From an uncultured Chloroflexia bacterium (GTDB lineage Bacteria > Chloroflexota > Anaerolineae > Anaerolineales > UBA4823): a stretch of 64,000 nucleotides of DNA. The position numbers and the translations under genes are program-made. Below, in pieces: positions 12,554-36,075 of this stretch. The stretch lies in the NCBI GenBank assembly GCA_963774935.1, contig CAVZGO010000007.1, positions 407,861 through 471,860 on the forward strand, given 5' to 3'. How positions within the stretch are numbered: position 1 is the stretch's first letter; every line of letters starts with the position of its first letter. The notes below the pieces were generated by a model. The model was not told the origin of the DNA. It did no database searches and was given only the letters and a program-made list of their open reading frames with translations.

Positions 12554-12630
12554 GCCCCAGTAGCTCAGTGGATTAGAGCACTTGCTTGCGGAGCAAGGGG
12601 TCGCGTGTTCGAGTCGCGCCTGGGGCACCA
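12554..12630 (+). tRNA. tRNA-Arg, anticodon GCG (CCA encoded)
   Basis: Hand-folded cloverleaf. Acceptor stem gccccag/ctggggc. D arm gctc-agtggatta-gagc. Anticodon arm cttgc-TTGCGGA-gcaag. Variable loop gggtc. T arm gcgtg-ttcgagt-cgcgc. Discriminator A followed by CCA. Confidence 0.85.
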
Positions 12631-18442: not shown

Positions 18443-18454
18443 ATAACGAATCCT

Positions 18455-20497: not shown

Positions 20498-20503
20498 AAC
20501 GTC

Positions 20504-21037
20504 TCATCCTTTAGTGTTAAGCGTATTCTGAATATTAGTGATAGCTTCATCCAATAATGCAGTTAGTTGTTGAGTTTCATCACGAAGCACACGTTTGAGA
20601 ATATTAACTTTTTTATCTAACAAACCAAAATCAGAAGCTGGGTTAAAAAACATATTCCATAAAGATTGAGCAATTTGATTTACGAAACCAATTTGCTCAT
20701 AAACGGTAATTAATCGTTTATGTAATAAATAATCGGATAAGCCGAACTGTACTCCTTCTTGTGCAGCTTGCCATGCGTCATCTGATATTAACGGATAGCG
20801 AATATCGTCTTCTGTTGACTCAATTGCGAGGAATTTTTCAATTTCGTTTTTATTCTTTTGCAACTCATCAAGTATGGTCCTTAATACCGTATTAGCACGT
20901 TCCTCTTGTTCCCTAAGCTTTATACGTCGGTCAAGCCAGAGACCGGTCGGTATGGCTAGGATTGCACCTATTAAAGCACCTACCATATTAGATAGGACAT
21001 TAATCCAAAATTCATTACCCAAATTAAGGAACCCCAT
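20504..21037 (-). CDS. 177-aa protein with one N-terminal TM helix and a long helical/coiled-coil domain; unknown function
   Basis: The TM helix is VLSNMVGALIGAILAIPTGLWL, followed by charged helical sequence (DRRIKLREQEERANTVLRTILDELQKNKNEIEKFL...). The gene sits 6 nt upstream of the TPR-PNP gene. Confidence 0.6.
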   Translation of the reverse strand: MGFLNLGNEFWINVLSNMVGALIGAILAIPTGLWLDRRIKLREQEERANTVLRTILDELQKNKNEIEKFLAIESTEDDIRYPLISDDAWQAAQEGVQFGLSDYLLHKRLITVYEQIGFVNQIAQSLWNMFFNPASDFGLLDKKVNILKRVLRDETQQLTALLDEAITNIQNTLNTKG

Positions 21038-21065
21038 ATTAGTACGATGATAGATAAAAATAGTT

Positions 21066-22399
21066 TTATACCCGTTGAATTACAGCACCAACTCCATTAA
21101 GCCTCTCATCAAAGGATTCATAACCGCGTTCTATTTGCTCAATATTTAACACCTCTGTTATATCCGAAGCTACAAGTCCCGCAATTACTAGAGCTGCCCC
21201 AGCCCGCACATCACTCGCACTAACAACGGTACCATTTAGTTTTGTTGGCCCATAAATTTTAACGGCATGGAATAATCCGGCAGTACTTTCATAAGGAAAA
21301 TTGTATATTTTAGGATCTACATCAGGATTGAAATACTCTATTTTGGCTTCCATTTTTTTTAATTCATCCAAATGAGTAAATCTTTGTGAAAATATTGTCT
21401 CGTGAAAAACACTCACACCATGCATTTGTGTCATTAAAACCTCTAACATTGGTACCCAATCCGTCGAAAATCCCGGATATGGACGACTAGTAACAGATAA
21501 CCCCGTTAATTTAAAATCGGAGCATTGAACCTCTAGAATTTGTGATTCGCCCTCATGACCTAGTTCAAATCTGACTCCTTTCTGGCTTAATATTGCCAAG
21601 AGGGGAAGTAGATGTTCTTCATTGACACCTTTGAGTGTTATTGGACCATGACCCAATGCCCCAGCAATTACAAATGTGGCAGCATCGTTTCTGTCGGGCA
21701 TGATTGTAATGTCAACATTAACAGGACTATATTCACCGGATACCCCCTGCACCTCAACAATCCCATTTTCGCCTCGCTTCACATTTGCACCCGCTTGTTG
21801 CATAAACAATATAAAATTATCAATTTCAGGTTCTAAAGCGGAATTTTGAATTATGGTCGTACCCTTTGCACATATTGAAGCAAGTATTGCATTTACTGTC
21901 CCATTTACTGTGGTTTTGGTGAATGTAATGATGCCCCCAGTTAATCCTTTTGATGTTATTTCGTAATACTCATCCTTTTCTATAACGGTTGCCCCTAGTC
22001 GTCTAAAAGCATCTAAGTGCCATGTCACTTTTCTCCTACCGATCTGATCGCCGCCAGGATGCCAAATTCTAGCACTACCAAACCTGCTCAATAATGCCCC
22101 CGCAAAAAGAAAAGAACCGGTAGATTTTGCTGTGACTTCAGGGGGAATTTCTTGAGGTTCAATATTAGTGGTGTCGATTAATAAAGTGTGTTCATCTAGT
22201 GAATTAATCTTTGCGCCTAAAAATGAAAGTATTTCAACCAATGCAGCCGAATCGTTTATTTTTGGAACATTTCTAAGTAAATACTCACCAGGAAACACAA
22301 TAGTCGCTGGAATAATTTTTTGTGCGGCATTCTTAGCGCCTTGAATTTTGACCTCCCTTTTAGAATAGGGCTATGATGGATTACAAACTTTGTAGTCAT
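21066..22399 (-). CDS. MurA-type enolpyruvyl transferase (EPSP-synthase fold) with Asp at the catalytic-Cys position; N-terminus split by an apparent 1-nt deletion at the C-run 22355-22357
   Basis: ATG 22399 (SD aaggaagga) gives MTTKFVIHHSPILKG. Adding one G continues this as EVKIQGAKNAAQKIIPATIVFPGEYLLRNVPKINDS... Other motifs are PGGDQIGRRKVTWHLDAF (E. coli MurA has PGGCAIGARPVDLH), GFSTDW and DVRAGAALVIAGL. Confidence 0.8.
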
Positions 22400-22416
22400 G
22401 GTGTATCCTTCCTTTT

Positions 22417-22956
22417 TCAATTAAATAGCCCGAGTTGTCTCACCCATAAAAGCAAAGTGATGCTAGGTAAGTGCGAAATTTCACCCTTCTCAATCATATC
22501 AAAAGCAGTTGCAATATTAAATTTGCCGATTTGTATTTTTTCTGTTGGATCAGGCTTTGGGTTACCTATAGAAAAATCTTTAACGACATAAAACCATATT
22601 TTACTTAGTAGTGTGTCTGTTCCCCAATCTGCAGATCCAATCGATATCCATGAAGTACTTGTAAAGCCAGTTTCTTCTAATAATTCTCTCTTAGCCGCAT
22701 CGATTGGTAATTCATCTTGGTCTATTCCCCCTCCAATAACTTCCCATGTTTCTTTTGCAATTGCGTAACGATATTGTTTTACTAACATTATGTTTCCACT
22801 GTGAGTTATAGGCAATATCATTACGCCTGGTTTCATTTCTAATACTAAATGGGAGGTTGTGTTTCCGTTATGCTCACACAACTTATCCTCACGAAGAGTT
22901 AACCAGGGCGATTTATAAATATTAGAACTTGATAATATTTTTGTATTGCTCACCAT
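22417..22956 (-). CDS. Nudix hydrolase, ADP-ribose pyrophosphatase (NudF)-like
   Basis: The Nudix box is GGGIDQDELPIDAAKRELLEETGF, preceded by LVKQYRYAIAKETWEV, the NudF-type pattern. Confidence 0.8.
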   Translation of the reverse strand: MVSNTKILSSSNIYKSPWLTLREDKLCEHNGNTTSHLVLEMKPGVMILPITHSGNIMLVKQYRYAIAKETWEVIGGGIDQDELPIDAAKRELLEETGFTSTSWISIGSADWGTDTLLSKIWFYVVKDFSIGNPKPDPTEKIQIGKFNIATAFDMIEKGEISHLPSITLLLWVRQLGLFN

Positions 22957-22979
22957 AATATCCCTTTGAATATTCTTTT

Positions 22980-23645
22980 CTAGATTGATTCGCCTAAAAC
23001 ACCCTTTACCACAACAAATGCCTCATAATACCTATTCTTTACATGATTGTCCGGATGTGCTTGGATAGCCCACCATTTTGCGCGGGTTGATACTACCTCC
23101 GGGTGCATGTATGATTTTCCTTTTTCAGAAAAATGTAGATTAATAGCCTGCCTCTTTATTTCAATAAAATTCGTGATATCTACAAAAATATTTGGGGCAA
23201 AATCCCCATTTTGGGTTGGTGGTTCTGAATATAGAATCCAAAATATATTGGAGTTGCGTCTTCCTGCATTTAAAACCGAAGAAGCAACAACAACATGATC
23301 TTGATGACCGTATCCCAATACTTGGGGATAATGTGTTATCAGAATAGAAGCAGAAGTCAGGGCAATATAATTTTCAACTATCGACACAATTTCATGGTTA
23401 TATAATAGCTCTCCATCAGGGAGATTCTCATTGTAAATTTGAAAGCCCCCAAGCTTAGCAGCTGCTTGGGACTCAATATGACGCTGACGAGATGATGTTG
23501 TTCTACTTTTTTCTCCATTTGTTAATTCTAGAACGGTTACTTTCCATCCAGCGTGACTAAGGCGTACAAGCGTACCAAAACATGTTAATTCATCATCATC
23601 GGGATGAGCAAAAACTGCTAACACATTAGGAGTATTATTTATCAT
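22980..23645 (-). CDS. PIG-L/LmbE-family N-acetylglucosaminyl deacetylase
   Basis: VLAVFAHPDDDELTCFGTL, the AHPDDE motif, is followed by ...HQDHVVV... (second metal-binding His/Asp motif). Confidence 0.8.
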   Translation of the reverse strand: MINNTPNVLAVFAHPDDDELTCFGTLVRLSHAGWKVTVLELTNGEKSRTTSSRQRHIESQAAAKLGGFQIYNENLPDGELLYNHEIVSIVENYIALTSASILITHYPQVLGYGHQDHVVVASSVLNAGRRNSNIFWILYSEPPTQNGDFAPNIFVDITNFIEIKRQAINLHFSEKGKSYMHPEVVSTRAKWWAIQAHPDNHVKNRYYEAFVVVKGVLGESI

Positions 23646-23651
23646 AGAAAA

Positions 23652-24635
23652 TCACCTATTGAATTTCACACCTGGTTTTATGCCATATTTTTTTGAAAAT
23701 GATACACTATCCATTTCTTCATCATCACCAAGTTGGAGTCGTTTTATTATTATAGATTTTGTAAGACAAGCAACCAATAACCCATTATCATTAATGTCAA
23801 TAATACTCCCTGGTTCATAATTTGTTACTTGCTCACCCATGGCGGCTTTCCAAATTATTACTTTTTCCCCGTTCCAAAATGTAAACGCACCAGGATATGG
23901 ATGGGTAAGTGCTCTTATCCAATTGTATTGATCTAAACTCTCCCGATACCAATCAATTACTCCATCTTCTGGCCTTCTTTTTTCCCAATATGTAACCTTT
24001 GTTGGATCTTGTGGAATACGAGGGGCAGTTCTATTTGCTAACAATGGTAGACTATCTTTGACTAACTGGTAATGGAGGATTGCTATTTTTTTATAAATAC
24101 TCGATGCATCATCATTGATCTCAATCATGTATTCATTCTGGGCTATCATGTCCCCTGCATCTGCCTCCTCTTCTAGATAAAACATAGTCACACCGCTTTT
24201 AGTAAAACCCTTGATAATTGTCCAGGGGATAGGTGCTCTACCCCTTCCTATCGGTAGTAAGGTGGGATGAATTCCTATGCAGCCATGAGTGTTATCATGG
24301 CGTTTAGAACTATTGTATTTGTTCTTTGGAATGTCTAGTAACTCACTAGGTGCCAATTCGGACCAGCCGATAATAAAGATAAAATCTGGTGATAGTTTCT
24401 TTATTTGATTGTATACGTCTATTGTCTTAATACTTGAAATCTTGAATAAGGGTGCTTTAGCTTGATTAGCTAAAGAATCGAAAGATGTGTATCCCGATGT
24501 TTTTTCGGCTTTTTCCTCTGATAAGCTAAAAACTGCAATTAATTTAGCCTCTTGACTCTTAAACACGTCTAAATCTATAAGTCCATTTAATGCGAATTGA
24601 CCTAACTCAACACCGCTTATGAATACAATATTCAT
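23652..24635 (-). CDS. Formyltransferase of the Fmt/ArnA type (N- and C-terminal formyltransferase domains)
   Basis: HGCIGIHPTLLPIGRGRAPIPWTIIKG aligns with the Fmt segment [20 protein letters not shown]. ...EEADAGDMI... holds the catalytic Asp region. The C-terminal part IDWYRESLDQYNWIRALTHPYPGAFTF is Fmt_C-like. Confidence 0.8.
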   Translation of the reverse strand: MNIVFISGVELGQFALNGLIDLDVFKSQEAKLIAVFSLSEEKAEKTSGYTSFDSLANQAKAPLFKISSIKTIDVYNQIKKLSPDFIFIIGWSELAPSELLDIPKNKYNSSKRHDNTHGCIGIHPTLLPIGRGRAPIPWTIIKGFTKSGVTMFYLEEEADAGDMIAQNEYMIEINDDASSIYKKIAILHYQLVKDSLPLLANRTAPRIPQDPTKVTYWEKRRPEDGVIDWYRESLDQYNWIRALTHPYPGAFTFWNGEKVIIWKAAMGEQVTNYEPGSIIDINDNGLLVACLTKSIIIKRLQLGDDEEMDSVSFSKKYGIKPGVKFNR

Positions 24636-25062
24636 CTTGGCTTCCCCTCTCGAAATATGAAATATGTGAGAGATTTTCTACTATTGTACAACCAATTACA
24701 TAACCAGATGTGCCTTTTGATAACTCTTGTAATCAAAACAGACACTCAGAATAAAACTCGGTTCTCATACCGATCCTGAAAACCCACTTAAGATTAAAAA
24801 AGGGGAAATGATAAGGATCATGGTCGTATTTAACTAGCCCGTATAACCTTGTAGTGAATATAAATTTTCTTCTTTATTGCGATCATCGAAATATATGACC
24901 TATGACCCGCTAACGATACCTTCCGCAAATTTTTCTGATTATATCGTAACTATCATCTTCGGTGGTCTAATTTGGGTAACAGCTATGTCTGGTGACTAAA
25001 AATATATTGTCAAATAATAGCGAGGGCATTGCCAAAGTGACTAAATGGATCATCCGGTTAGT

Positions 25063-25750
25063 TCAGGATACATTTGGACATAATCCGACACCGCAGCTAC
25101 GCACAAGTTTGTGACGACGGCGGCGGCCCCGGAAAAAGGGATGACGATGTTGGTACCAGTATTGGGTAGCTTCTCGAACAGCCTGACATACTTCTTCCCA
25201 GGTCTCAAAGCGTTTGCCTTTCAATGCCAGCGAACGCAGAATTTTCCACCACGGCTCGATCAGGTTGAGGTAAGCCGCATATTTGGGTTGAAAAACGAAC
25301 TGCCACCGGGGATGGTGCAAACTGAACAACAACACATCGGTCGCTCGGTGCGCCGGCAAGTTGTCCAAAATGGCATTGATCTGCAAATCGGCTGGCAGCT
25401 ATTGGTCTACTTTCTCCAGAAAATCCACAAAGTTCTTCGCCGAACGGCTCACATACGGTTCGGTAAAAACTTCTGCATCGCTTGGTTTGAGGGCTCCAAA
25501 GGTGTAACCTTTTCCACGTCGACCATAATCAATCTCTTGTTTGGCTCTTTTCTGTCAACCAGAAAATAAGAAAGGGTCTTCTGTCAAAGCCAGTTCGCCA
25601 ACGCTGGCTTTTCGTGCAACGGCTCGAAATCCACGTTGGTGAGATCAATATCATCACGCAGGTGCTGGAACAAATGCAAAAACCGGGGCATAGCGCACGG
25701 GGAAACCGGAGTAAGCCGCACAGCTTAACCGGAGCATGGCTCACACACAA
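25063..25750 (-). pseudogene. IS630-family (DDE_3, Tc1/mariner-like) transposase remnant with an in-frame stop and frameshifts
   Basis: The reverse strand reads ...DYGRRGKGYTFGALKPSDAEVFTEPYVSRSAKNFVDFLEKVDQ*LPADLQINAILDNLPAHRATDV...FQPKYAAYLNLIEPWWKILRS, the DDE_3 core. The upstream part is only recognisable in other frames (PFLIFWLTE). Confidence 0.7.
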
Positions 25751-25799
25751 ACCAGGATAAGGCGCTCACTTTTTTCAAAATCGGGGGATGTCAGTAAGC

Positions 25800-26131
25800 A
25801 TGATATTCGAATTCTGATTCGTAGACTTTTCATTTTCTGGTTGACATCTGTTCTCCAGTCACTACTGCACTCCGGAACAAGGACATTAAAAAGGCGGTGT
25901 TGAGAACGACGACGGGTACAGCGCAACTTCATGACACCCCTGCTGCGGGTCAATTCTTACGAAGAAATGAACGCCATCCTGCACAGGGCCTGCCAAGTCA
26001 ATATGCAGCGTCGAACCCGTGGCCATACTGATCGGGTGTATGAACTGTGGGAGGACGAAAAGCCATGTTTCCTGTTATTCAGCCTACTGATTATGTCCAA
26101 AATGAACTATTCTTCAGACCCTTCCCATTGA
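25800..26131 (+). pseudogene. IS21-family istA C-terminal fragment (stop + frameshift); no istB follows
   Basis: The forward strand reads ...HYCTPEQGH*KGGVEN, then after a frame change RRVQRNFMTPLLRVNSYEEMNAILHRACQVNMQRRTRGHTDRVYELWEDEKPCF. This matches the IstA C-terminal pattern C.P..P..KGKVE...Y....F...F.S.EELN..L..W......R.H. Confidence 0.6.
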
Positions 26132-26160: not shown

Positions 26161-27303
26161 TCAAACCTTCCCCTCAAACGCGCGTCTCAGCAGCCCTTGA
26201 AACAGCATCTCTGCCTGTCTTTCTGTCTCGCGTTGCTGGATGCGTAGACGATCGTAGCGACGCACGACGTGTGCAAAAAGATCTTGATTTGCTAGAGGGG
26301 GCATAATAGTTTTGATCTTCTTGATGTCTTGAACATTGACATGTGGCGATGCAGAGCCACCAACCATTCTCTCAGCTTGTTTATAAATACTATCCAATTC
26401 AAGGACAGCCCATAAAAATTCGGGGGTTGCCTTCTGAGGATCCGCTCTAAATAGCATTATTCGTTGACCAAGACATATTTTCTTATTAGAATTTTCGGGA
26501 ATTCGTGCAGCATTTCCAAATCGAGCACCTTCACGACAATAAATCACATCATCTCCCATCGGAGTTCCTCGCTCTATCCTCTTGGCATATTCTTCGTATT
26601 CAACATATTTTGTGGTTGACCAGTCAAGGTAACCATTTTGTATATCAGAGCTTCTTACACTTGCATACTCAGTCTCGATTAAAGTATGTATTGGTGTTTC
26701 GTGTGGGCAATCCAAGATTGTTTCACACAAATCATTAATATGCCCGATTTCCCATCTTTTTAAGTTCGTTTCCGGCTCCCCAAACATCTCCACAAACACC
26801 GACTGCAAAAACGACTCCCCCAGCTCGCGCGCCGTGCGCCGCAGTTGCCTCAGTCGGTCTGCTTTCGCCAGGATCATCGCGATGCGGCGCTGCTCGGAGT
26901 GAGATGGAAGAGGAACAATCATCCTTTCAAGAAAATTTCGATTTACATGTGGTATTGTCGCCCCAGTACAATTGTCTTGAATTTCCTCGAATTTGCTCCT
27001 CAAAAAGTAGCCTAAATATGGACCATAAATAGTATCTTTATTTGGTCGTAAAATAGCCAGCGTGCTACCTGCATATCCTGTCAACCCGAAACCAATTGTT
27101 CCAGCGTTAGCACCATCCCAAGCAATCAGAACATCATTTACATTTGCAACAACAGCTTTTTCTACTTGTGCATACTTAGGTTTCCCGCCTGGTCGTAAAT
27201 CTTCAATTTGCAAATAAGGATACATTTCGGTTTTCGGTTTGCTAAAAACTTCGTCTGCTTTATTGCCTTTGATAATCGTGACCATTTCGCCAAGTGCTGT
27301 CAT
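26161..27303 (-). CDS. hsdS: Type I restriction-modification specificity subunit HsdS (two target-recognition domains)
   Basis: The protein is 380 aa. The conserved central helix is EQRRIAMILAKADRLRQLRRTARELGESFLQSVFVEMFG and the C-terminal helix is DRLRIQQRETERQAEMLFQGLLRRAFEG. These flank two variable domains. The gene overlaps hsdM by 4 nt. Confidence 0.9.
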   Translation of the reverse strand: MTALGEMVTIIKGNKADEVFSKPKTEMYPYLQIEDLRPGGKPKYAQVEKAVVANVNDVLIAWDGANAGTIGFGLTGYAGSTLAILRPNKDTIYGPYLGYFLRSKFEEIQDNCTGATIPHVNRNFLERMIVPLPSHSEQRRIAMILAKADRLRQLRRTARELGESFLQSVFVEMFGEPETNLKRWEIGHINDLCETILDCPHETPIHTLIETEYASVRSSDIQNGYLDWSTTKYVEYEEYAKRIERGTPMGDDVIYCREGARFGNAARIPENSNKKICLGQRIMLFRADPQKATPEFLWAVLELDSIYKQAERMVGGSASPHVNVQDIKKIKTIMPPLANQDLFAHVVRRYDRLRIQQRETERQAEMLFQGLLRRAFEGKV

Positions 27304-29042
27304 TTAAGCAACTCACCTAACTCTTTGATCTCCTCCTTCATCACCTGCTCCAGCCGCACCAGCCGCTCCAGCGTTACCTCCGGTTTCTCATAGTACACCT
27401 CGTCCGCTTCCACCTGCCGGTAGCGGCTGGCGGACAGGTCGTATTTATTCGCCTTGACCTGCGCCTTGCTCACCCAGAACTGCCGGCTGAGCTGCGCTAT
27501 CTCTGCCTGCAGCGGCGCGATCCGCCCCTCCAGCGCCACCAGCCGCTCCTGCGCCTCCGCCAGCTCCCCTTGCCCAGAATGGGGAGCGGCAACCTGAGCG
27601 TAGCTCAGGTCGGTGAGGGACTTAGGCCTGATCGCCGCCTCAAACCTCAGCCGGTTGATCTCTGCCTGCAGTCCCAACCGCTGCGCCTTGAGCGGCGCCG
27701 CCTGCGCTTGAAGCTCCTCCAGGCGCACCTGCCGCGCCTGCTGGAAGGCGGGCTCGCCGCGCTTCTGCCAGCAGGTCAGCACGTCCGGGATGTCGTTCTC
27801 TGCTACCGGCACGCGCTTGTCGTCCAGCGAGTAGCCGTCGTGCGCCATGTCGTAGAACCAAATCTCGCCCGTCTTTGCCCCGCGCGTGAACAGCAGCACC
27901 GCCGTGGATACCCCTGCATAGGGCCGGAATACCCCCGAAGGCATCGAGATCACCCCGTCCAGCCGGTTTTCTTCGAGTATCTTCTTGCGCAGCGCCACGT
28001 GCGCCTTACTGGAGCCAAACAGCACCCCGTCCGGCACGATCACCGCGCAGCGCCCGCCCATATCCAGGGCGCGCAGGATCAGGTGCACGAACAGCAGCTC
28101 GGTCTTGGTCGTGTCCCCCGGCAGCGTCGGGCTGGCGTCGCCCTTGTCCACCGCCCCCTTGAAGGGCGGGTTCATCAGGATCACGTCGTACTCGCGCTCG
28201 TCGGTGAACGCCTTGGAAAGCGTGTCCATGTAAAAGAACTGCGGTGAGTCGATCCCGTGCAGCATCAGGTTCATCGAGCCAATCCGCAGCATCGTCATCC
28301 CCGAATCGTTGTCGAAGCCGCGCAGGAACCTCTCGGATTTCATGAACTCCCGCTCGCGCTCATTCAGCCGGTCGCCGATCAGGTGATGCGGTAAGCCCTC
28401 TTCGTCGTAAGCCAGGATTTCTACCGAAGTGCCTTTTTCCAGCACGTACTGGTAGGCGTTCACCAGAAAGCCCGCCGTTCCGCCTGCCAGGTCGCCGATC
28501 CGCTCGGTGGGCTTGGGCGCTGCCATCTGCACCATCATGCGGATGATATGCCGCGGCGTGCGGAACTGCCCGTTGCGCCCCGCCGTGTTCAGCTTGCTCA
28601 GCAGGTATTCGTACAGGTCGCCCTGCACGTCCTGGTTCTGCTGGCTGATCTCCATCTGGTCGATCAGCTTGCAGGCTTCGATCAGCAGGCTCGCCTTGCT
28701 GATCTTGCACTCGGCGTTTGCCATGTAGCGCTCGAAAGAGCTGCCCTGTTCGCCCAGCGTGCGGAACCACGGGAAGATCGTCTCCTTCAGATGGCGCAGC
28801 GCCTGGCCCGCTTCGTACTTCGTCCAGTTCTGCCAGCGCATCTCAGCCGGGATTCTGCCCGGGTACTCCGCTTCGCGCCGCCGCGCCTGGCGCTCCAGCG
28901 CATTTTCGCGGTCGTCCAGGCGCTTCAAGAACAGCAAATACGAAAACTGCTCGATCGCGTCCAGCGGGTTGGTCAGCCCGCCCGACCAGAACTTGTCCCA
29001 CAGCGCGTCCACTTGCGATTTGAGTTTCGGATCAGTCAGCAT
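27300..29042 (-). CDS. hsdM: Type I restriction-modification DNA methyltransferase subunit HsdM (N6-adenine), with a long C-terminal coiled-coil extension
   Basis: The HsdM_N part is LWDKFWSGGLTNPLDAIEQFSYLLFLKRLD. The AdoMet motif is DLAGGTAGFL and the catalytic motif is VILMNPPFKG. Confidence 0.93.
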   Translation of the reverse strand: MLTDPKLKSQVDALWDKFWSGGLTNPLDAIEQFSYLLFLKRLDDRENALERQARRREAEYPGRIPAEMRWQNWTKYEAGQALRHLKETIFPWFRTLGEQGSSFERYMANAECKISKASLLIEACKLIDQMEISQQNQDVQGDLYEYLLSKLNTAGRNGQFRTPRHIIRMMVQMAAPKPTERIGDLAGGTAGFLVNAYQYVLEKGTSVEILAYDEEGLPHHLIGDRLNEREREFMKSERFLRGFDNDSGMTMLRIGSMNLMLHGIDSPQFFYMDTLSKAFTDEREYDVILMNPPFKGAVDKGDASPTLPGDTTKTELLFVHLILRALDMGGRCAVIVPDGVLFGSSKAHVALRKKILEENRLDGVISMPSGVFRPYAGVSTAVLLFTRGAKTGEIWFYDMAHDGYSLDDKRVPVAENDIPDVLTCWQKRGEPAFQQARQVRLEELQAQAAPLKAQRLGLQAEINRLRFEAAIRPKSLTDLSYAQVAAPHSGQGELAEAQERLVALEGRIAPLQAEIAQLSRQFWVSKAQVKANKYDLSASRYRQVEADEVYYEKPEVTLERLVRLEQVMKEEIKELGELLK

Positions 29043-29045
29043 AGC

Positions 29046-29429
29046 TTATCGATTGGCTTTCTTTTCGATATATTGCACGCCCTCAAGACCTTTGAAGTGC
29101 GCGTCCTGGGTCCACAGCGTGGCCTTATAAGCCCTGGCGCTCGCCAGGATGATGCTGTCTGCCATTGCCAATTTTAATTCGGTCGATAGCAAGGCCGCCT
29201 CAATGGCAATTTGCCTGTCTAAATCGATGACGTTTCCCACCACCATGCTGCCGGCAGCGTTCAAGGCTCGTGCTTCGCCAAATTCCGTTAGCACTCGCTT
29301 GAATACTTCGTACAGGCAGATGGTCGGCGTCACCAGGCTGTCCGCCTCCTGAATTGGCGCAGCAAAGAAATCGGCATTGACCCCGTCCGTGAGATATTCC
29401 AACCACCCAGATGAGTCAACAACGTTCAT
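29046..29429 (-). CDS. vapC: PIN-domain ribonuclease toxin VapC
   Basis: MNVVDSSGWLEYL... starts with the first acidic PIN residue, and LAMADSIILASA / TQDAHF carry the later ones. The protein is 127 aa. It overlaps vapB by 4 nt, and its stop lies 3 nt before the hsdM ATG. Confidence 0.85.
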   Translation of the reverse strand: MNVVDSSGWLEYLTDGVNADFFAAPIQEADSLVTPTICLYEVFKRVLTEFGEARALNAAGSMVVGNVIDLDRQIAIEAALLSTELKLAMADSIILASARAYKATLWTQDAHFKGLEGVQYIEKKANR

Positions 29430-29641
29430 TCGCGTTCCTCATCTTCTTCTTCACGGATACCTTCGATGTTCAATCCCTTCAGCATCCCACGTGCCTCTTC
29501 GATAGGCGGCACGATTACCACCCGTAAAGTCCCCTGATAAGGGATAAAGGCCAGCTTTTGCCCGGGCTTTAAGTTGAATTTTTCCCGCACTTCGCGCGGT
29601 ATAACCACCTGGAACTTGGATGAAATAGTTACTGCTTCCAT
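29426..29641 (-). CDS. vapB: AbrB/SpoVT-family antitoxin VapB
   Basis: MEAVTISSKFQVVIPREVREKFNLKPGQKLAFIP is a swapped-hairpin AbrB/MazE DNA-binding fold. The acidic C-terminal tail is EGIREEEDEERE. Confidence 0.85.
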   Translation of the reverse strand: MEAVTISSKFQVVIPREVREKFNLKPGQKLAFIPYQGTLRVVIVPPIEEARGMLKGLNIEGIREEEDEERE

Positions 29642-29679
29642 CGCTTTACGTCTCCTTATCGAACAGATAATGTAAGACG

Positions 29680-29708
29680 ATTATATCACCTTGTTAATTA
29701 ATTGTCTT
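29680..29708 (-). promoter_or_regulatory. Candidate sigma70-type promoter for vapBC(-hsdMS), with the TTAATTAA palindrome in the spacer
   Basis: The reverse strand reads AAGACA-17 nt-TATAAT (-35 at 29708-29703, -10 at 29685-29680). It lies in the AT-rich 114-nt gap between hsdR and vapB, and the spacer contains ttaattaa. Confidence 0.4.
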
Positions 29709-29755
29709 TTGATTCGCTAATGCATAAAATTGTTTCCACCGCTTGGAAGGGTTTG

Positions 29756-32494
29756 TCAGACCTCTAACCCCTGGGTGAAATGGATCAATTCAGAAACCTC
29801 GTTGGGCGAAAACCAGCGCTCTACCACATCCACGCCGAATTTGTCGAACGGCGCCTCGTACAAATCGGCGGTCTCCAGGCGCCGCTTCTGCAGGAACACG
29901 CTCTGCACCGCCCGCAGAAAGCGGATCTGGTCGCCATTGTACGGGTGGGCTGCGATGAACTGCAGGAATTGGTGCTGCACCACCTCGCCGTAGCCCGGGA
30001 TGGCATCTACCGCCAGCACCAGGCGCAGGAAGTCCAGGAAGCTATCCGCCTGCACCCCGTACGCCCGGCGGATGTTCTGCGGCGTCAGCTCCAGCGCGCT
30101 CCCCGCCAGCTCTGAGCGCAGCACGCGCTCCAGGTCGAGCAGCGCCAAATCGTCCGGGGTCTCGCCCCGCCCGATTGCTTGCAGCGCCGGGTGGCTTTCC
30201 ACAATCGCCAGGATGCGCGCTTCCACCCGCAGGCGGTATTCTTTGACGTACACCTGCTCGCCGCTCTGCGTCAGCAGGATGTAGCCGCTCAGGTCGATCC
30301 GGTCGGGCAGGTCCAGCATCAGGAAGTTGTTCACTCGCCGCCGGTTTTTCATCTGCGGCGCCAGCCCGGCTGCGATCTGGCTGAGCTCGGCAGGCTTTGC
30401 CTGGGCCAGGTTGTTGGGCGTGCACTGCCGCACCAGCGGCGCCAGCGCAGGGTCCTCGGTGACGAATTCTGGCAGGCTGGCGGCGTCCTCCACAATCGAC
30501 TGCACCAGGGCGCTCGCCTCCCTGCCTGTGCGCTGCGCCAGCTTCAAGCGCTCGATCTTGTGCTGGAAGGTCTCCGCTGGCACGTCCACCTCCGCCGCCA
30601 GGCGCAGCAGCGGGCCGACCTTCAGGCGCAGAAAATCGATCTTAGACGGGATCAGGTAGCCCCAAAACGCCTCGCCGAAGGCTTCTTCGATCTCGGGCAG
30701 CACCCGCCGCACCGAGAACGATTCTTTGGGGATGCGGTTGACCTGCGCCAGCAGGTCACCGGTCACCTGCTGGCAGCCGGGGTCGTTTTGCTCGCCCAGG
30801 TAGGTCTCCAGCAGCTTCAGGCGCGTGTTGAACAGCGCCACCAGCACCGGCAGCTCCTGCCTCAGCGCCTCCTCGGGCGCCTTGTTGAAATCGTTCTCCC
30901 AGAAGTCGATCACCAGGAATTCCTGCTTGCTCCCGCCCGGCAGCCGCTCGGGGAACCGGCAGGCCGCGTTCGAGCGCGTGCCCCGCCCGATCATCTGCTC
31001 CAGCTTGATGCGTGACTGCACCGGTTTCATGAATACCAGGTTGACCACCTCCGGCACGTCGATGCCGGTGTCCAGCATATCCACCGAAATGGCGATGCGC
31101 GGCAGCTCTTCCTGTTTAAAGCGCTTTACCAGTTGGCCGCGGTACTCGGATTTATACGTGATCACCCGCGCCAGGTTGGGAAACTGCGGGTACATTTCGT
31201 CGAAGGTATCTTGCAGCCGCAGGGCATGCTCCTGGGTCATTGCAAAAACAATCGTCTTACCGGGTAGCTGCCCGGACTGGTCATAGAAGCACTGCCCCAT
31301 AATTTCTTCCCACTGCCGGCGCAGCGTGTCCTTGTTGCTGACGTCTTTCTCGAGCTGCGTGCCTTCGAAATCGATCTCGTCCGGGTCAAAGCCCTGCTCG
31401 ATCAATTGGTTGCGGTCTTCGTCGCTCAGGTCGATGCCGCGGATACCCTGGCGCTGGAAGTGGGTTTGCGCTGCGTACAGGGTGTAATCCACCAGGTAGC
31501 CTTCTTCGATCGCCTGCTTGTAAAGATACAGGAAGGTCGGCTTGCCATCCCCGCAGTCGAAGACCCGGAAGGTGTCCCGGTCGATGAACTGCGCTGGTGT
31601 GGCGGTCAGCCCGATCATCCGCCCGTCGAAGTACTGCAGCACTTCGTTGAACTTGTTGAAAATCGAGCGGTGCACTTCGTCGAAAATGATCAGGTCGAAA
31701 AAAGCCGGCGAGAACTGCTCGAAGCACTGGCTGAGGGTCTGCAGGGTCACTGCATACAGCCGCTTGGTCTTATCAATCGTGTGTGAGTAGATCCGGTCGC
31801 ACGGCTCGTTTGGCAGGAACTTCTCGAAGCCGTCCGTCTTGGCCTGCTCCACCAGCGCGTCGCGGTCTGCCACGAACAGGATCGTGCGCGCCTGGTTGGC
31901 ACGCAGAAAAACGTCGATAATCGACATGGTGGTGCGCGTCTTGCCCGTGCCGGTCGCCATCACAAGCAGCGCCTTGCGTTTTCCCGCATCGAACGCTTCG
32001 CACACCCGCCGCACCGCTTCATGCTGGTAGGGTCGGTCGGTGATGCGGTTGTCGATAGCAATGCTGCTGAGCGGTTTCTGCTGCTGGCGCAGGAACAGCA
32101 GCCGCTCCAGGTCATCCGGGGTGGCAAAGCCGTACACCATCCGCTTGGGCGCTGCGCCCGCATCCAGGAAATAAATATCTGTCCCGTTTGCCAGGTAAGC
32201 GAAGGGTTGGAAGCTCTGGTGCTTATGGATCTCGGCTACGTAGTGCTCCGCCTGCTGCTGCGCCAGGCGCGGGTCGTGGCTGGTGCGCTTGGCTTCCACC
32301 ACCGCGATCACCTCACCGTTAGCCCGGTACAGGCAGTAATCCGTCACCCCGTTCCACGGCTCCTGGTCGTAGCCATCCACCGGAATCTCGATCCCCACCT
32401 GGGCGTGATTCCTCAAGTTCCACCCCGCCCGTTCCAGCGCCGGATCGATCATCTCCTTGCGCGTCTCTGCTTCCGAAATTCTACGCATGCCCAT
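29756..32494 (-). CDS. hsdR: Type I restriction enzyme R subunit HsdR (SF2 helicase/translocase + nuclease)
   Basis: The N-terminal part is AETRKEMIDPALERAGW. The Walker A motif is MATGTGKT and the DEAD-box variant is IIFDEVHRS. Helicase C motifs are TGIDVPEVVNLVFM and QMIGRGTR. The protein is 912 aa. Confidence 0.93.
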   Translation of the reverse strand: MGMRRISEAETRKEMIDPALERAGWNLRNHAQVGIEIPVDGYDQEPWNGVTDYCLYRANGEVIAVVEAKRTSHDPRLAQQQAEHYVAEIHKHQSFQPFAYLANGTDIYFLDAGAAPKRMVYGFATPDDLERLLFLRQQQKPLSSIAIDNRITDRPYQHEAVRRVCEAFDAGKRKALLVMATGTGKTRTTMSIIDVFLRANQARTILFVADRDALVEQAKTDGFEKFLPNEPCDRIYSHTIDKTKRLYAVTLQTLSQCFEQFSPAFFDLIIFDEVHRSIFNKFNEVLQYFDGRMIGLTATPAQFIDRDTFRVFDCGDGKPTFLYLYKQAIEEGYLVDYTLYAAQTHFQRQGIRGIDLSDEDRNQLIEQGFDPDEIDFEGTQLEKDVSNKDTLRRQWEEIMGQCFYDQSGQLPGKTIVFAMTQEHALRLQDTFDEMYPQFPNLARVITYKSEYRGQLVKRFKQEELPRIAISVDMLDTGIDVPEVVNLVFMKPVQSRIKLEQMIGRGTRSNAACRFPERLPGGSKQEFLVIDFWENDFNKAPEEALRQELPVLVALFNTRLKLLETYLGEQNDPGCQQVTGDLLAQVNRIPKESFSVRRVLPEIEEAFGEAFWGYLIPSKIDFLRLKVGPLLRLAAEVDVPAETFQHKIERLKLAQRTGREASALVQSIVEDAASLPEFVTEDPALAPLVRQCTPNNLAQAKPAELSQIAAGLAPQMKNRRRVNNFLMLDLPDRIDLSGYILLTQSGEQVYVKEYRLRVEARILAIVESHPALQAIGRGETPDDLALLDLERVLRSELAGSALELTPQNIRRAYGVQADSFLDFLRLVLAVDAIPGYGEVVQHQFLQFIAAHPYNGDQIRFLRAVQSVFLQKRRLETADLYEAPFDKFGVDVVERWFSPNEVSELIHFTQGLEV

Positions 32495-33302
32495 CTTCTC
32501 CCACCACCCGCTCCAGGTTCTCCTTCGTCAGCAATCCCAGGTCAAACCCCGGCTCGACAAACGGGCGCACATCCGCCCGGATGCTCTCCCAATCCAGGTC
32601 GCCCAGGCGCTCGTTCACCCGTGACCGCCAGTTGGCTTCGGTCAGCAGCCCTCCCTGCCAGCTCGTTTGCGCCAGGGCGTTGTTGAGCAGCACCAGGTTG
32701 GGCGGCGGCCAGGCCGGGTCGCTCAGGTACCAGAGCAGGTCGAATAGATCGCGCCCCTTGGTGTAAGGTCGTTGTAAGATCGCGTGCAGCTTTCCTGAAA
32801 GCAGCGAGGCCTTGTCGTGATGCTGGAGCTGGAGCACGAAATAACGCCGCACCACGCTGGTGGTCAGTCCCGCACCGGCTGGCGGGTGGGTATCCACTTC
32901 CAGCTTGATCGCCAGCACTTCGCTGCGCTGTCCGGACAAGCCAAGCTCGTAAAGCAAGCCGGGGAAGCGCACAAAGGCGCTGTGGACCGCCTTTTGATCG
33001 TTGATCTTTAATTCAACAGGATAACCTTCTGGCATCAATTCGGCCCGGATGGCCTGCAAATAGCCGCGGAAATCGTAGGCAGCCGGTTCGCCGCCTTCCA
33101 GGGCAAAATCCAGGTCTTCAGAGTAGCGCCCGTGGCCGTACAGGAAGCGCAAGGCTGTGCCGCCGTGAAAAGCCAGCGGCATCATTGCCCCTGCCCGCTG
33201 CAGTGCGGCCAAAATGCGCGCCTGCAGGTACTCACGCGCCAGGTTGCGCCCCTGCGCTGGCGTGCTCGCCTGCCGCACCAGCTCAGCCAGGTGCTCTTTC
33301 AT
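32481..33302 (-). CDS. abiEii: AbiEii/AbiGii-family nucleotidyltransferase toxin (type IV TA)
   Basis: LAFHGGTALRFLYGHGRYSEDLDFAL is the family signature. The gene overlaps abiEi by 4 nt and hsdR by 14 nt. Confidence 0.85.
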   Translation of the reverse strand: MKEHLAELVRQASTPAQGRNLAREYLQARILAALQRAGAMMPLAFHGGTALRFLYGHGRYSEDLDFALEGGEPAAYDFRGYLQAIRAELMPEGYPVELKINDQKAVHSAFVRFPGLLYELGLSGQRSEVLAIKLEVDTHPPAGAGLTTSVVRRYFVLQLQHHDKASLLSGKLHAILQRPYTKGRDLFDLLWYLSDPAWPPPNLVLLNNALAQTSWQGGLLTEANWRSRVNERLGDLDWESIRADVRPFVEPGFDLGLLTKENLERVVGEDGHA

Positions 33303-33949
33303 AATGGCTCATACTCCTGGGCTTCCGCTTCAGCCAGGCGCAGGATCGCCTGGACGGCTCGGCGCAGCTTGGGCGTGTTGAATCCTTCAGCTTGCTTTTG
33401 CAGCGCTTCCAAGTCCAATCTTTCCAGGTTCTGCAGCCGCAGTTCGCGCAGGTAGTCGGGATGATCCCCTCCAGGCTGCAGATACACCAGGTCAAGCAGG
33501 GCCTTTTCCGGAGTCGCGACGAGCGCATGCTGGCTTGGCTGCATGCGGTTCAGGTCGATCATGCGGTATCCGCTCAGCAGGTTTTGCTTGACGTGCCGGA
33601 ACTCGAACACGCCCAGGGGTGTTTCCCAGCGCCCTGGGCGGCCGGTGGTTGCACTGAGGGTGGCGTGCACAATATCCGGGATCAGCCCGTAAAAAGCCAG
33701 CGCCGTCTGGCAGCTCACGTAGGATGCCCGCTGCAGTTGGTTGGCGATTAAAAAAGGGTGCGGCTTCACCTTCTGGTAAGGCGGCGCCAGGGCATACAGC
33801 CCACGCCGCAGCTGGTACAACCGCCCACTTTTTGTCCAGCGCGTGAGCTGCAGCCGCACGATGTCCGGGTTCACCTTTCCCGCCAGCAGCATCGCGGTTT
33901 CAAATACCGGCTCGTCGCCGATCAGTTCCAGCAAACTTTCGAATTCCAT
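33299..33949 (-). CDS. abiEi: AbiEi-family antitoxin/transcriptional regulator (type IV TA)
   Basis: The N-terminal winged-helix part LQLTRWTKSGRLYQLRRGLYALAPP is followed by a C-terminal AbiEi_4-like domain. The protein is 216 aa. Confidence 0.85.
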   Translation of the reverse strand: MEFESLLELIGDEPVFETAMLLAGKVNPDIVRLQLTRWTKSGRLYQLRRGLYALAPPYQKVKPHPFLIANQLQRASYVSCQTALAFYGLIPDIVHATLSATTGRPGRWETPLGVFEFRHVKQNLLSGYRMIDLNRMQPSQHALVATPEKALLDLVYLQPGGDHPDYLRELRLQNLERLDLEALQKQAEGFNTPKLRRAVQAILRLAEAEAQEYEPL

Positions 33950-33955
33950 ATCGAA

Positions 33956-33984
33956 ATACTAGCATACATGCTAAATTAATGCAA
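33956..33984 (-). promoter_or_regulatory. Candidate abiE operon promoter with an overlapping 14-bp palindrome (possible AbiEi operator); probably a leaderless transcript
   Basis: The reverse strand reads TTGCAT (33984-33979)-17 nt-TAGTAT (33961-33956), with the ATG at 33949 only 6 nt downstream. The palindrome TAGCATGTATGCTA (33960-33973) spans the spacer/-10 junction. Confidence 0.45.
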
Positions 33985-34120
33985 TAAAACCAGCATAAAC
34001 TTCTCGATTCTAAAACAACTTGGGGGTCTGGGCTCAGTTGCGCAAGCTCCAGCCTGAACGCTAAGCTTGAGCCTGATCACCCTATGATTTCACGATACGA
34101 GCTGTATTTACTCGGGGTCT

Positions 34121-34157
34121 GGGGGAATGTGAGCGGTTTCACCGCTCACATTCCCCC
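34121..34157. repeat. Perfect 17-bp-stem hairpin (3-nt loop)
   Basis: The sequence is gggggaatgtgagcggt-ttc-accgctcacattccccc. Confidence 0.9.
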
Positions 34158-34168
34158 AGAATCCTCTA

Positions 34169-34222
34169 AAAGCCCATTCCATGGGTGCTGAGCGATAGCA
34201 CAGCACCCATGGAATGGGCTTT
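34169..34222. repeat. Perfect 22-bp-stem hairpin (10-nt loop)
   Basis: The sequence is aaagcccattccatgggtgctg-agcgatagca-cagcacccatggaatgggcttt. Confidence 0.9.
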
Positions 34223-34521: not shown

Positions 34522-34540
34522 ATGGGTTTTGGTTATTTGT

Positions 34541-36075
34541 CATTGAGCTCTCTTCCTCCTTACCGCCAATCCCCAGATCAACAGCGCTGCCCCCACCAAT
34601 ACCCCCGCGCCGATCCCCACCAGCAGCCAGTCCACTCTGCCGGCTTCCTCCGCCTCTTCCGTGCTTGATTCCGCAGGAGTTCCCACCGCCGTGGGTGCTT
34701 GCTGTCATGGTTGGTAGTGGGGTGGACGTCAGCCTCGGCTGCGGTGTGCGCCTCGGCGCTTCGGTCGGCGTGGCGCTTGGCGTCAAAGTCGGCTCGGCTG
34801 CTTTCACCACGATCTTGGTCACCCGGCTGGATCACCGACTGCATCGTCAGTCCGTTCAAATCCAGCAGCTCTTGCAGTGGAACCTCGTACACCGTGGCGA
34901 TGCCCACCAGCGTCTGCCCGCTCTGCACCGTGTGCACCAGCGAGCCATCCGGGTTGGGCGTGGCCTTCGATCCAGCCGATCGCCCCGCTTCCCGATCCTG
35001 TCCCCGGTGTAGTTGAGCCCCCCGGCGCGGCCTGATCCCAGCCCTCTGTCCACAGAAATGTCACCGCCACCCTGGTGTTGCCCGAAGGCAGCCCCAGGGT
35101 CTTCGCCAGCGAGCAAGAGATATCCAGTCCCACCGGGCTGGTCACCACCCGCCCATACTGGTCCAGCCCGCCGTTGTAGCCGTTGAAATAAGCCGCCTGC
35201 GCCTCCGGCACCCCCAGGCCCAGGTCGGCGAACATGCGCCGCGGCTGCGGATCGCTGAGCTTCGACCAGAAGTTATCGTCCACGTTCCACGGCCCCGATT
35301 CAGCCACCAGCGCCGCTACCAGCTTGCCCTGGTAGCCGATCATGATCGAGTAGCCCTGCCCAAAAGCGTAGCCGTCACACGCCATCGCCCCACCGTTGGC
35401 GAATTTCAGGCACTTGTCCGGGAGCGCCACGATCTCGCGCTCCCCTGCATCGTAGCAGGTGGCATAGACATCGAAGCTGCGCGCAGCGGACTTCGCCAAA
35501 ATAAGCGACAAGGAGAAACTATCAAGGCTCAATTCAGACTTTGTCTCAGGATTGCCCCCCTGTGGTCTCGATGCAACTTGCTTGGCTGCCCATTTCCTCT
35601 CGACCCATTCCACCAGTCGTTGGTAACCCGCTTCACCCAGAATTTTCTGCAGCCTGGACTGGTCCTTATCCAGGATGCCCCAGATTTGCACATTGTAGCC
35701 GCTCTCCGCAATTGCCGCTCTCTTTTCTGCTGCTCCTATCAATGGGTTGGCGAGAATTGTCCGGCTCTCTGCCTCCAACTGCTCGATTTGTTGTGCTTCC
35801 TGTCTGGCGATTTCGATTACTGCCTCTGCTTCTTGCCGGGTGAATCCCAGGTCTTGTGTCAGTGCATGTTTCCCACGCCCATCCAGCAGCAGCTGCGCCA
35901 GCACCGGTTTGCTCCCCCATACACCATCAGTCGTCTGCATCACTGAAAACACTGGCTGCGCTGTGCCCAACACCAGCACGAGCACTACCAGCGCGGCAAG
36001 CTGCTTACACCGTAATATCATCCGAAAACGCTCCACAAAACGATTATAAGCCATAATATTTCGCTGCCCGCGCAA
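34541..36075 (-). CDS. Secreted/cell-wall protein: signal peptide, RlpA/DPBB-like middle domain (tentative), LysM domain, PT-rich linker, C-terminal TM anchor; three apparent homopolymer frameshifts
   Basis: Frame 1 (36075->~34985) holds the signal LAALVVLVLVLGTAQPVFS and ...GKLVAALVAESGPWNVDDNFW... Frame 2 holds the LysM domain HTVQSGQTLVGIATVYEVPLQELLDLNGLTMQSVIQPGD. Frame 3 reads KIVVKAAEPTLTPSATPTEAP... The fourth piece reads APTAVGTPAESSTEEAEEAGRVDWLLVGIGAGVLVGAALLIWGLAVRRKRAQ*, with its stop at 34541. The breaks are at the C-run 34983-86, gg 34817-18 and tt 34699-700. Confidence 0.7.

Follow-up and report, generated by a model that had tools for sequence, protein, structure and literature searches.

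A 64,000-nt stretch of DNA from an uncultured Chloroflexia bacterium (assembly GCA_963774935.1, contig CAVZGO010000007.1, positions 407,861–471,860; hereafter the window, whose own numbering is used throughout) carries a seven-gene locus that we interpret as a composite of three separable units. In our judgement it is likely that a functional EcoAI-like type I restriction–modification (R-M) operon, hsdR-hsdM-hsdS, captured two self-contained and independently mobile toxin–antitoxin (TA) cassettes, abiE and vapBC, and that the hsd genes are now expressed via the cassette promoters. The seven intact genes lie in the order abiEi-abiEii-hsdR-vapB-vapC-hsdM-hsdS at 26161–33949, all on the minus strand in a six-frame list of open reading frames. 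The vapBC cassette would fill the slot between hsdR and hsdM and abut hsdM, whereas the abiE cassette would have lost its normal 3′ end, with abiEii fused onto the start of hsdR and the former hsdR promoter displaced. A preliminary description of this DNA had treated the genes as one operon; two cassette-borne promoters plus possible read-through describe them better. The locus was compared with 43 related type I loci, found by an HsdR scan of one genome per GTDB species, and with 80 vapBC loci and 7 abiE loci.

An intact R-M core and two toxin–antitoxin pairs

The three R-M genes are intact. hsdR (29756–32494 from its first ATG) encodes a type I restriction subunit of the EcoAI/EcoEI-like kind with the Pfam domains ResIII, Helicase_C, HSDR_N and EcoEI_R_C (PADLOC REase_I, 7e-114), in which the nuclease motif D52...E67xK69 and the helicase motifs GTGKT182 and DEVH are kept. 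Its best NCBIfam match is the EcoAI/FtnUII family NF046051 at 262 bits, below the cut-off of 550, and we therefore call HsdR EcoAI-like (type IB-like) and not a certified member of that family. The N6-adenine methyltransferase subunit is encoded by hsdM (27300–29042, 580 aa; Pfam N6_Mtase 2.6e-51 plus HsdM_N), which has an intact NPPF291 motif and an ATG without an obvious Shine-Dalgarno sequence. The last gene of the array, hsdS (26161–27303, 380 aa), encodes a specificity subunit with two target-recognition domains (TRDs), visible as two Methylase_S stretches in Pfam (PADLOC Specificity_I, 1.3e-60), and has a GC content of ~45% in the composition profile against 62–67% for hsdR and hsdM. A PD-(D/E)xK nuclease, an SF2 helicase, an NPPF methyltransferase and a two-TRD HsdS together make up the gene content of a type I R-M system.

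Both TA pairs are also recognizable. abiEi (33299–33949, 216 aa) encodes the AbiE antitoxin and transcriptional autoregulator, detected over its full length by PADLOC (2.8e-57) and marginally by Pfam AbiEi_4 (24.8 bits against a cut-off of 25). It overlaps by 4 nt with abiEii (32481–33302, 273 aa), which encodes a DUF1814 nucleotidyltransferase (NTase) toxin (Pfam 1.2e-26; PADLOC 1.8e-63) with an intact GGT47...D63xD65 motif; a bicistron of this build, with a full-length AbiEi, has the gene make-up of AbiE. vapB (29426–29641, 71 aa) encodes an AbrB/MazE-fold antitoxin (Pfam MazE_antitoxin 9.5e-09; NCBIfam AbrB-family domain 6.6e-12) and shares 4 nt with vapC (29046–29429, 127 aa), the gene of a PIN-domain RNase toxin (Pfam PIN 1.4e-11) whose acidic residues D5, E41, D91 and D109 are invariant in the VapC alignment A1. 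An antitoxin-first overlapping bicistron with a PIN acidic tetrad and an AbrB/MazE-type antitoxin is the arrangement of a VapBC type II TA system.

At the junctions, abiEii overlaps the first ATG of hsdR by 14 nt, a 114-nt AT-rich spacer (29642–29755) separates hsdR from vapB and holds the putative vapBC promoter in its vapB-proximal part, vapC stops 3 nt ahead of the hsdM ATG, and hsdM and hsdS overlap by 4 nt. Every coordinate of this layout in the preliminary description was reproduced from the reading-frame list, and Pfam, PADLOC and NCBIfam upheld its gene identities. Its 14-nt overlap holds for the first ATG of hsdR but probably not for the real start. The hsdR gene of the closest relative (locus L001) starts at the codon equivalent to M3 of the window, and a GGGAG 9 nt upstream of the M3 codon is kept in both; for these reasons the true start is probably the ATG at 32488, with an overlap of 8 nt. 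Short overlaps are the norm for same-strand operon genes and are therefore unremarkable alone; the feature that comparison of the sequences marks out as non-random is the recurrence of vapBC beside hsdR.

Pairwise ratios of non-synonymous to synonymous divergence (dN/dS) against the nearest homologues are 0.02–0.12 for abiEi, abiEii, hsdR, hsdM and vapC, including 0.12 for both abiEi and abiEii against L001 and ~0.10 for vapC against L045. For vapB, dS is saturated and the ratio not computable (dN 0.07). These values indicate purifying selection on the tested genes, the TA genes included. The idea that the TA genes are decayed relics is ruled out by their intact motifs and dN/dS of ~0.1.

The two cassettes and their putative promoters

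Over 120 protein clusters contain relatives of AbiEii at 77–84% identity. The five other abiE contexts in the comparison set (L124–L130, 79–83% identity) are all stand-alone pairs amid unrelated housekeeping genes with no hsd gene nearby. Their abiEi encodes 217 aa and their abiEii 268–273 aa; abiEii of the window is 5 aa longer than the usual 268, since its end extends into hsdR. DNA homology with L001 and six stand-alone cassettes starts at the −35 box, CATTGCAT, in every copy, and the geometry of −35 box, 17 nt, −10 box, 6 nt and ATG is identical in all eight abiE copies. In the window this putative promoter and operator (PabiE; 33950–33984, minus strand) consists of a −35 TTGCAT at 33984–33979, a −10 TAGTAT at 33961–33956 and a 17-nt spacer with the palindrome TAGCATGTATGCTA (33973–33960). 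The inter-box palindrome covaries across the eight cassettes (TAGCAT..ATGCTA versus TATCAT..ATGATA), as would be expected of an operator for a dimeric repressor, and this fits the published AbiEi autorepression via promoter inverted repeats (PMC7319586; PMC3985639). Given that only 6 nt separate the −10 box from the abiEi ATG and that no Shine-Dalgarno sequence is present, the abiE mRNA is apparently leaderless. Between the upstream gene and PabiE, an inverted-repeat search found two very strong minus-strand hairpins (34118–34160, arms of 20 nt, 100% complementary; 34169–34222, arms of 25 nt, 96% complementary), which are likely to act as terminators or as an insulator at the 5′ edge of the unit.

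The other edge of the cassette differs between copies. In L124–L127 a hairpin, CCTGTC-N17-GACAGG, lies just past the abiEii stop, whereas in the window and L001 it is missing and abiEii continues straight into hsdR. The hairpin is also missing from L128–L130, where ~36 nt of the hsdR 5′ coding end (…AAAATTTCCGAAGCTGAGACTCGCAA) directly follow the abiEii stop with no hsdR downstream (9808–9845 in L128). We read this stub as the relic of a former abiE-hsdR junction, and the cassette can therefore, it appears, leave an hsd locus.

A fusion of abiE to hsdR is found only in the window, L131 and L001. Of the 43 related type I loci, L001 alone has the abiEi-abiEii pair ahead of hsdR; its HsdR is 86% identical, its slot holds DUF6615 and not vapBC, and its DNA homology with the window consists of two blocks (33985–29789 and 29049–27364), the slot, hsdS and flanks being different. 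The preliminary description had proposed to survey how often the exact gene order recurs. It does recur, in L131, but in none of the 43 related loci; L131 is 93–97% identical and lies in the same chromosomal neighbourhood of a different assembly, for which reasons we assign it to the same species as the window. L131 carries an extra insertion of ~370 nt with a PhdYeFM-type antitoxin (8422–8794) just upstream of its abiE locus, compared with 34527–34553 in the window. Its hsd, vapBC and flank genes are broken by many indels (26–89 gaps in each aligned block), which most likely stem from errors in long-read assembly.

The vapBC cassette has edges as sharp as those of abiE upstream. The DNA homology common to all vapBC copies (~90) corresponds to 29685–29058 of the window; it spans the TATAAT box through the vapC stop and nothing outside, which marks vapBC as a unit of ~630 bp that begins at its own putative extended −10 element. 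The 78 upstream regions compared give the consensus gtG.TATAAT-cGt.TTACgattt-TCGATA-aGGAg-GTaaa-ATG; 71 of the 78 cassettes have TAnAAT and 44 have the TGn extension, and no conservation extends upstream of the −10 box. Since extended −10 promoters can function without a −35 element, the cassette would be transcriptionally self-sufficient. The putative vapBC promoter of the window (PvapB; 29708–29680, minus strand) combines the extended −10 TGaTATAAT (29688–29680) with AAGACA (29708–29703) 17 nt upstream. With 10 of 12 consensus matches plus the TG extension it ranks first among the promoter-like sites of the entire 10-kb region. The distal ~70 nt of the hsdR-vapB spacer have no homologue in any other locus.

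No terminator-like hairpin was found in the hsdR-vapB gap (fold z = −0.55 against shuffled sequence), and a consensus scan of the coding strand from 27300 to 33950 returned no other promoter-like site and no terminator. Rfam and tRNA scans gave nothing in or beside the locus, the sole match being a tRNA-Arg at 12554. The earlier view that the TA and abortive infection (Abi) modules are fused onto the R-M genes with no space for separate control regions is borne out by these results. That description had also tied hsdR to the abiE promoter and hsdMS to the vapBC promoter. This is reasonable given that the promoters are conserved in stand-alone cassettes and that no other promoter and no terminator were detected; PabiE probably drives hsdR, and PvapB, together with read-through, hsdMS. 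Such a link has a precedent in Mycobacterium tuberculosis, where loss of vapC21 increases the transcripts of the neighbouring hsdM and hsdS.1 (PMC7517352). Transcription from PabiE, repressed by AbiEi, would cover abiEi-abiEii-hsdR and, since no terminator is present, would probably read through into vapBC-hsdMS. PvapB, under repression by VapB or VapBC, would supply a second start and the transcript vapB-vapC-hsdM-hsdS. Translation of hsdR and hsdM would depend on coupling or re-initiation, across the 8-nt overlap for hsdR and the 3-nt gap for hsdM.

Several points weigh against this account of the locus. PabiE was not flagged by a simple sigma-70 consensus scan, so that we infer its promoter function, and promoter rules in Chloroflexota are poorly known. 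The case for PabiE and for PvapB alike consists of conservation and consensus matches, and a weak promoter may lie inside abiEii or vapC. Finally, vapBC adjoins hsdR far more often than chance would give, in several VapC clades, and this could reflect a functional interaction that a capture of independent cassettes does not include.

The position of TA modules in front of hsd genes might also be a selected regulatory design, in which AbiEi and VapB act like controller (C) proteins and their autorepressed promoters are adaptive for the hsd genes, either by setting the R:M ratio or by boosting R-M when antitoxins are degraded in stress or infection. TA modules serve as promoter-proximal leaders of hsd genes repeatedly: vapBC precedes hsdR in at least seven loci, by 20–36 nt in L004, L027, L047, L055, L076, L080 and L082; abiE precedes hsdR in two lineages (the window with L131, and L001) and left one relic (L128–L130); and vapBC precedes hsdM in the window. 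That no alternative promoters were detected, and that vapC21 of M. tuberculosis is linked to hsdM and hsdS.1 transcript levels, agrees with such a design. Yet most relatives run the same R-M operon without a TA leader, which makes the arrangement dispensable; in a naive cell both autorepressed promoters would fire together with no obvious lead for M, hsdR being in the upstream unit; and insertion at gene boundaries, the least harmful sites, would produce the pattern just as well. On balance we consider regulatory design distinctly improbable as the explanation, and prefer capture of cassettes that bring their promoters along.

A variable cargo slot between hsdR and hsdM

The 43 related HsdR loci are mostly from metagenome-assembled genomes of Anaerolineae and other Chloroflexota, with further loci in Pyrinomonadaceae (Acidobacteriota) and one in Pseudanabaena. 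A tblastn search with the seven window proteins showed that the order hsdR-[slot]-hsdM-hsdS is kept, and the slot could be evaluated in the 34 loci with both gene ends present. It is empty in 9 of these, with an hsdR-hsdM gap of 12–143 nt and a spacing of 12–63 nt where hsdM comes directly after hsdR, and holds vapBC in L007, L010, L013, L017, L018 and L037. Other cargo includes 23S_rRNA_IVP four-helix-bundle, TPR, AIM24 and DUF3800 proteins, an IS200-like Y1_Tnp, a HAD hydrolase and a phosphoribosyltransferase (PRTase), with DUF6615 in L001, an NB-ARC/TPR STAND protein in L026, UPF0175 plus DUF3368 in L037, and a Gabija-like pair of OLD-like AAA_15 ATPase and UvrD helicase in L010. Because the contents differ so widely among loci, we regard the hsdR-hsdM junction as a hypervariable cargo slot. 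At its right edge homology begins exactly at the hsdM ATG in all related loci. Upstream of hsdR the genes are unrelated in nearly all loci, and for this reason hsdR is taken to be normally the first gene.

Some relatives hold stacked cassettes in the slot: vapBC plus the AAA_15/UvrD pair in L010 (12817–16707), the NB-ARC/TPR STAND NTPase in L026 (6569–8896), and in L037 (7293–12923) vapBC, two 23S_rRNA_IVP genes, UPF0175 plus DUF3368, DUF3800, TPR and Y1_Tnp, interspersed with fragments of the hsdR 3′ and hsdM 5′ ends. GC-rich hairpins resembling repetitive extragenic palindromes (REPs), GTCCCGAAGG...CCTTCGGGAC, occur in the slots of L006 (~13380–13430), L010 (~12700–12770), L026 (~9600–9640) and L037 (~13040–13070). 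They adjoin IS200-like Y1 transposase genes, similar to REP-associated tyrosine transposases (RAYT-like), in L006, L026 and L037, and no Y1 gene was called in the L010 slot. Y1 genes lie just upstream of hsdM in L006, L007, L013, L022, L026 and L037. The REP-like hairpin is absent from the window.

One Pyrinomonadaceae contig, DASVTY010000084.1, has two copies of the R-M locus in opposite orientation (L021 and L029; 15283–38021 and 149796–172534), with identical ORF coordinates and the same slot gene. In L017, L034, L037, L040, L042, L043 and L068, hsdR or hsdM is frameshifted or internally deleted, hsdR residues 4–71 being joined to 635–912 in L068. Either decay of the R-M core or assembly errors are common in this family of loci.

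In the relatives, vapBC often lies between direct repeats of an hsdR end that have diverged, 60–177 nt long and 74–88% identical. Repeats of the 3′ end are found in L007 (150 nt, 85%), L013 (109 nt, 88%), L010 (60 nt), L037 (85 nt) and L068 (81 nt), and the hsdR stop codon of L007, L013 and L037 lies inside the TATAAT box of the cassette. Repeats of the 5′ end are found in L004 (139 nt, 86%), L027 (175 nt, 84%), L055 (177 nt, 76%) and L080 (153 nt, 82%), the hsdR downstream of vapBC being full-length in these four. Such repeats would be the signature of Campbell-type or unequal homologous recombination and not of transposition. Unlike in these relatives, recombination scars are not seen in the window: when the window was searched by tblastn with the seven proteins, neither fragments nor second copies of hsdR or hsdM turned up, and vapBC is trimmed flush against hsdM.

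A more specific idea is that the hsdR ends are recurrent landing pads, on which promoter-bearing vapBC units without a recombinase of their own arrive by Campbell-type recombination, the TA-leader position perhaps being selected. A vapBC unit would then carry along a copy of the hsdR 5′ or 3′ end, which would explain the repeats and the stub in L128–L130, and selection would act via gating of the R and M subunits through antitoxin-repressed, stress-responsive promoters. We hold this to be unlikely.

How closely vapBC and hsd genes are linked was judged from a metagenome scan with the VapC alignment, which gave at least 558 relatives. Of the best 80 examined for context, ~11 adjoin hsdR or hsdM of the window's R-M family and ~85% are not hsd-linked; among the 43 related type I loci, vapBC adjoins hsdR in 8. 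By these counts the linkage is far above chance for any single neighbour, yet a minority. The nearest VapC relatives of the window (L044–L046, 75–78% identity) are not hsd-linked within their available flanks; those of L045 (4.6 and 6 kb) hold sugar-metabolism genes and an SNF2-Mrr protein. No hidden hsdR or hsdM stubs were found beside unlinked vapBC cassettes beyond those already known. In a neighbour-joining tree of VapC, hsd-linked and unlinked copies are mixed in several clades, and vapBC has therefore apparently moved into or out of hsd loci repeatedly. A single ancestral capture is disfavoured by the R-M-linked copies in several clades, although repeated escape instead of repeated capture may account for the pattern. 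Tandem vapBC-vapBC pairs of the same family occur on several metagenomic contigs (L067, 1295–2545; L069, 5786–7330; L117, 1–2146).

The same counts bear on a guardian model of the PrrC or PARIS kind, in which one toxin or both would be functionally coupled to the R-M complex and become active once the type I enzyme has been disabled by an anti-restriction protein of a phage, as a back-up layer of abortive infection. The place of vapBC between hsdR and hsdM is that of an embedded gene such as prrC, its recurrence beside hsdR spans several VapC clades, and the concept has precedents (PMC12707154; bioRxiv 10.1101/2024.01.29.577857). However, neither toxin needs the R-M complex as inhibitor, given that both cognate antitoxins are intact and under apparent purifying selection; none of the five other AbiE contexts is hsd-linked, nor are most vapBC relatives, including L045, the closest with long flanks; and the slot takes a dozen unrelated cargo types, which points to a permissive site and not to a specific partnership. 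With toxins that have antitoxins of their own and lack a near-exclusive association with type I R-M, the analogy to PrrC in the preliminary description does not hold, and we give a guardian function very little credence. That description had further suggested that the arrangement times restriction against modification or adds a back-up suicide layer. Both remain ideas; no sequence feature specifically favours either over plain embedding or hitch-hiking.

At the other extreme, the modules could be purely selfish or neutral: addiction modules at permissive boundaries of an often-transferred locus, without a role in defence, their tight junctions being the product of deletion-driven compaction. 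The sharp cassette edges, the putative promoters within them, the hsdR-end repeats around vapBC as a recombination signature, the hsdR stub behind abiE in L128–L130 and the rapid turnover of slot contents would all be expected, and hitch-hiking of embedded genes has been discussed (bioRxiv 10.1101/2024.01.29.577857). Against it, AbiE is an experimentally established Abi/TA defence family (PMC3985639), and the other slot cargo is mainly of defence type (Gabija-like pairs, STAND, DUF3800) and not random. It is also hard to separate from the capture of mobile cassettes that we favour, which already includes hitch-hiking; in its pure form we think it highly improbable.

An exact-protein look-up of HsdR and AbiEii returned no genomic record, megablast of the locus against plasmids gave a 95-bp methyltransferase match as the only hit and thus no sign of plasmid carriage, and scans of viral contigs, for which AbiEii, HsdR and the VapC alignment served as queries, gave no relatives and no sign of phage carriage. 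PADLOC and Pfam searches of the flanking genes revealed no larger defence island around the locus.

Immediately downstream of hsdS lies a 7-kb block (18000–25000) of ~37% GC, the rest of the window having 50–66% GC. It encodes a formyltransferase, a PIG-L deacetylase, a NUDIX protein, an EPSP-synthase-like enzyme and a 680-aa TPR + PNP_UDP_1 protein that matches the PADLOC models 'PN-superfamily effector' and PDC-M60C, and is probably a separately acquired island. The first part of this block (formyltransferase, PIG-L, NUDIX) is also found in L131, in the corresponding place. In the non-coding DNA between hsdS and this island (25553–25846), 20-nt inverted repeats, TGTCAACCAGAAAATAAGAA, 90% complementary, surround 254 nt and look like those of a miniature inverted-repeat transposable element (MITE).

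Relation to known systems and implications

The embedding of defence or TA genes in type I loci is already described. Variable additional genes are co-expressed with R-M subunits (Makarova et al. 2013, PMC3632139), the Campylobacter rlo genes being accessory genes in type I loci according to that paper's citation of Miller 2005, and the 'guilt-by-embedding' survey of Payne et al. put the number of non-redundant genes nested in BREX, DISARM and type I R-M systems at 17,432 (bioRxiv 10.1101/2024.01.29.577857). The window shares with these cases same-strand extra genes that are nested or fused, variable among homologous loci and mostly defence or TA cargo. It differs in having two two-gene TA cassettes, one of them at the 5′ end, both of which apparently donate hsd promoters.

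Four individual systems invite closer comparison. PrrC, the model behind the idea of back-up suicide, is an anticodon nuclease with ABC-ATPase plus HEPN folds in EcoprrI (type IC); it lacks an antitoxin, and the R-M complex itself keeps it masked. The window likewise has RNA-targeting toxin genes among hsd genes, but its toxins are of PIN and NTase folds, have their own antitoxins and belong to lineages mostly not linked to R-M, whereas PrrC is almost exclusively embedded (bioRxiv 10.1101/2024.01.29.577857).

In M. tuberculosis vapBC also adjoins hsdM and hsdS, in what we take to be the gene order hsdS.1-hsdM-vapC21-vapB21-vapC42-vapB42-hsdS. Deletion of vapC21 raises the transcripts of the adjacent hsdM and hsdS.1 (PMC7517352), an effect consistent with transcriptional linkage. 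That cluster belongs to another phylum and VapBC lineage and, in PMC7517352, is without hsdR, AbiE or a 3-nt junction.

AbiE is a bicistronic type IV TA/Abi system (PMC3985639), and its representatives in Streptococcus agalactiae and Lactococcus resemble that of the window in the 4-nt abiEi-abiEii overlap, the DUF1814 NTase and a palindromic promoter element, in the window a putative operator (PMC3985639; PMC7319586); the window differs in the 2.7-kb hsdR fused onto the abiEii stop and in an apparently leaderless mRNA. In the Immigration Control Region of Escherichia coli, brnAT, symE/symR and rpn accompany hsdRMS (PMC12707154), which is again a variable defence locus with TA modules and type I hsd genes; there, however, the TA genes are neighbours with their own intergenic regions, not overlap-fused, and do not supply an hsd promoter. 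A paper on defence islands of S. thermophilus was also considered and had no bearing on embedding in type I loci.

What is modestly new is the cargo slot of Chloroflexota and Acidobacteriota, the sharp-edged cassettes of a promoter plus two genes, the hsdR-end repeats around vapBC and the recurrent TA leaders of hsd genes. In the composite that we favour, DNA restriction, the AbiEii nucleotidyltransferase and the VapC RNase would be three parallel, mechanistically independent layers, with each toxin restrained by its own antitoxin. Through embedding, the cassettes would co-transfer with the R-M genes and stabilise the locus, with the side-effect that R and M/S come under antitoxin-repressed promoters. 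If the promoters act as we propose, the R and M subunits would be expressed only through TA autoregulatory circuits, a regulatory entanglement of defence layers.

Current understanding is not overturned by these results; they extend the phenomenon of embedded defence genes to a poorly studied phylum. The comparative data offer a natural example of small TA cassettes entering and leaving R-M loci as minimal mobile units, in the case of vapBC an extended −10 box plus two genes and nothing more, and the hsdR-hsdM slot in type I systems of Chloroflexota and Acidobacteriota is a place where new defence genes could be sought.

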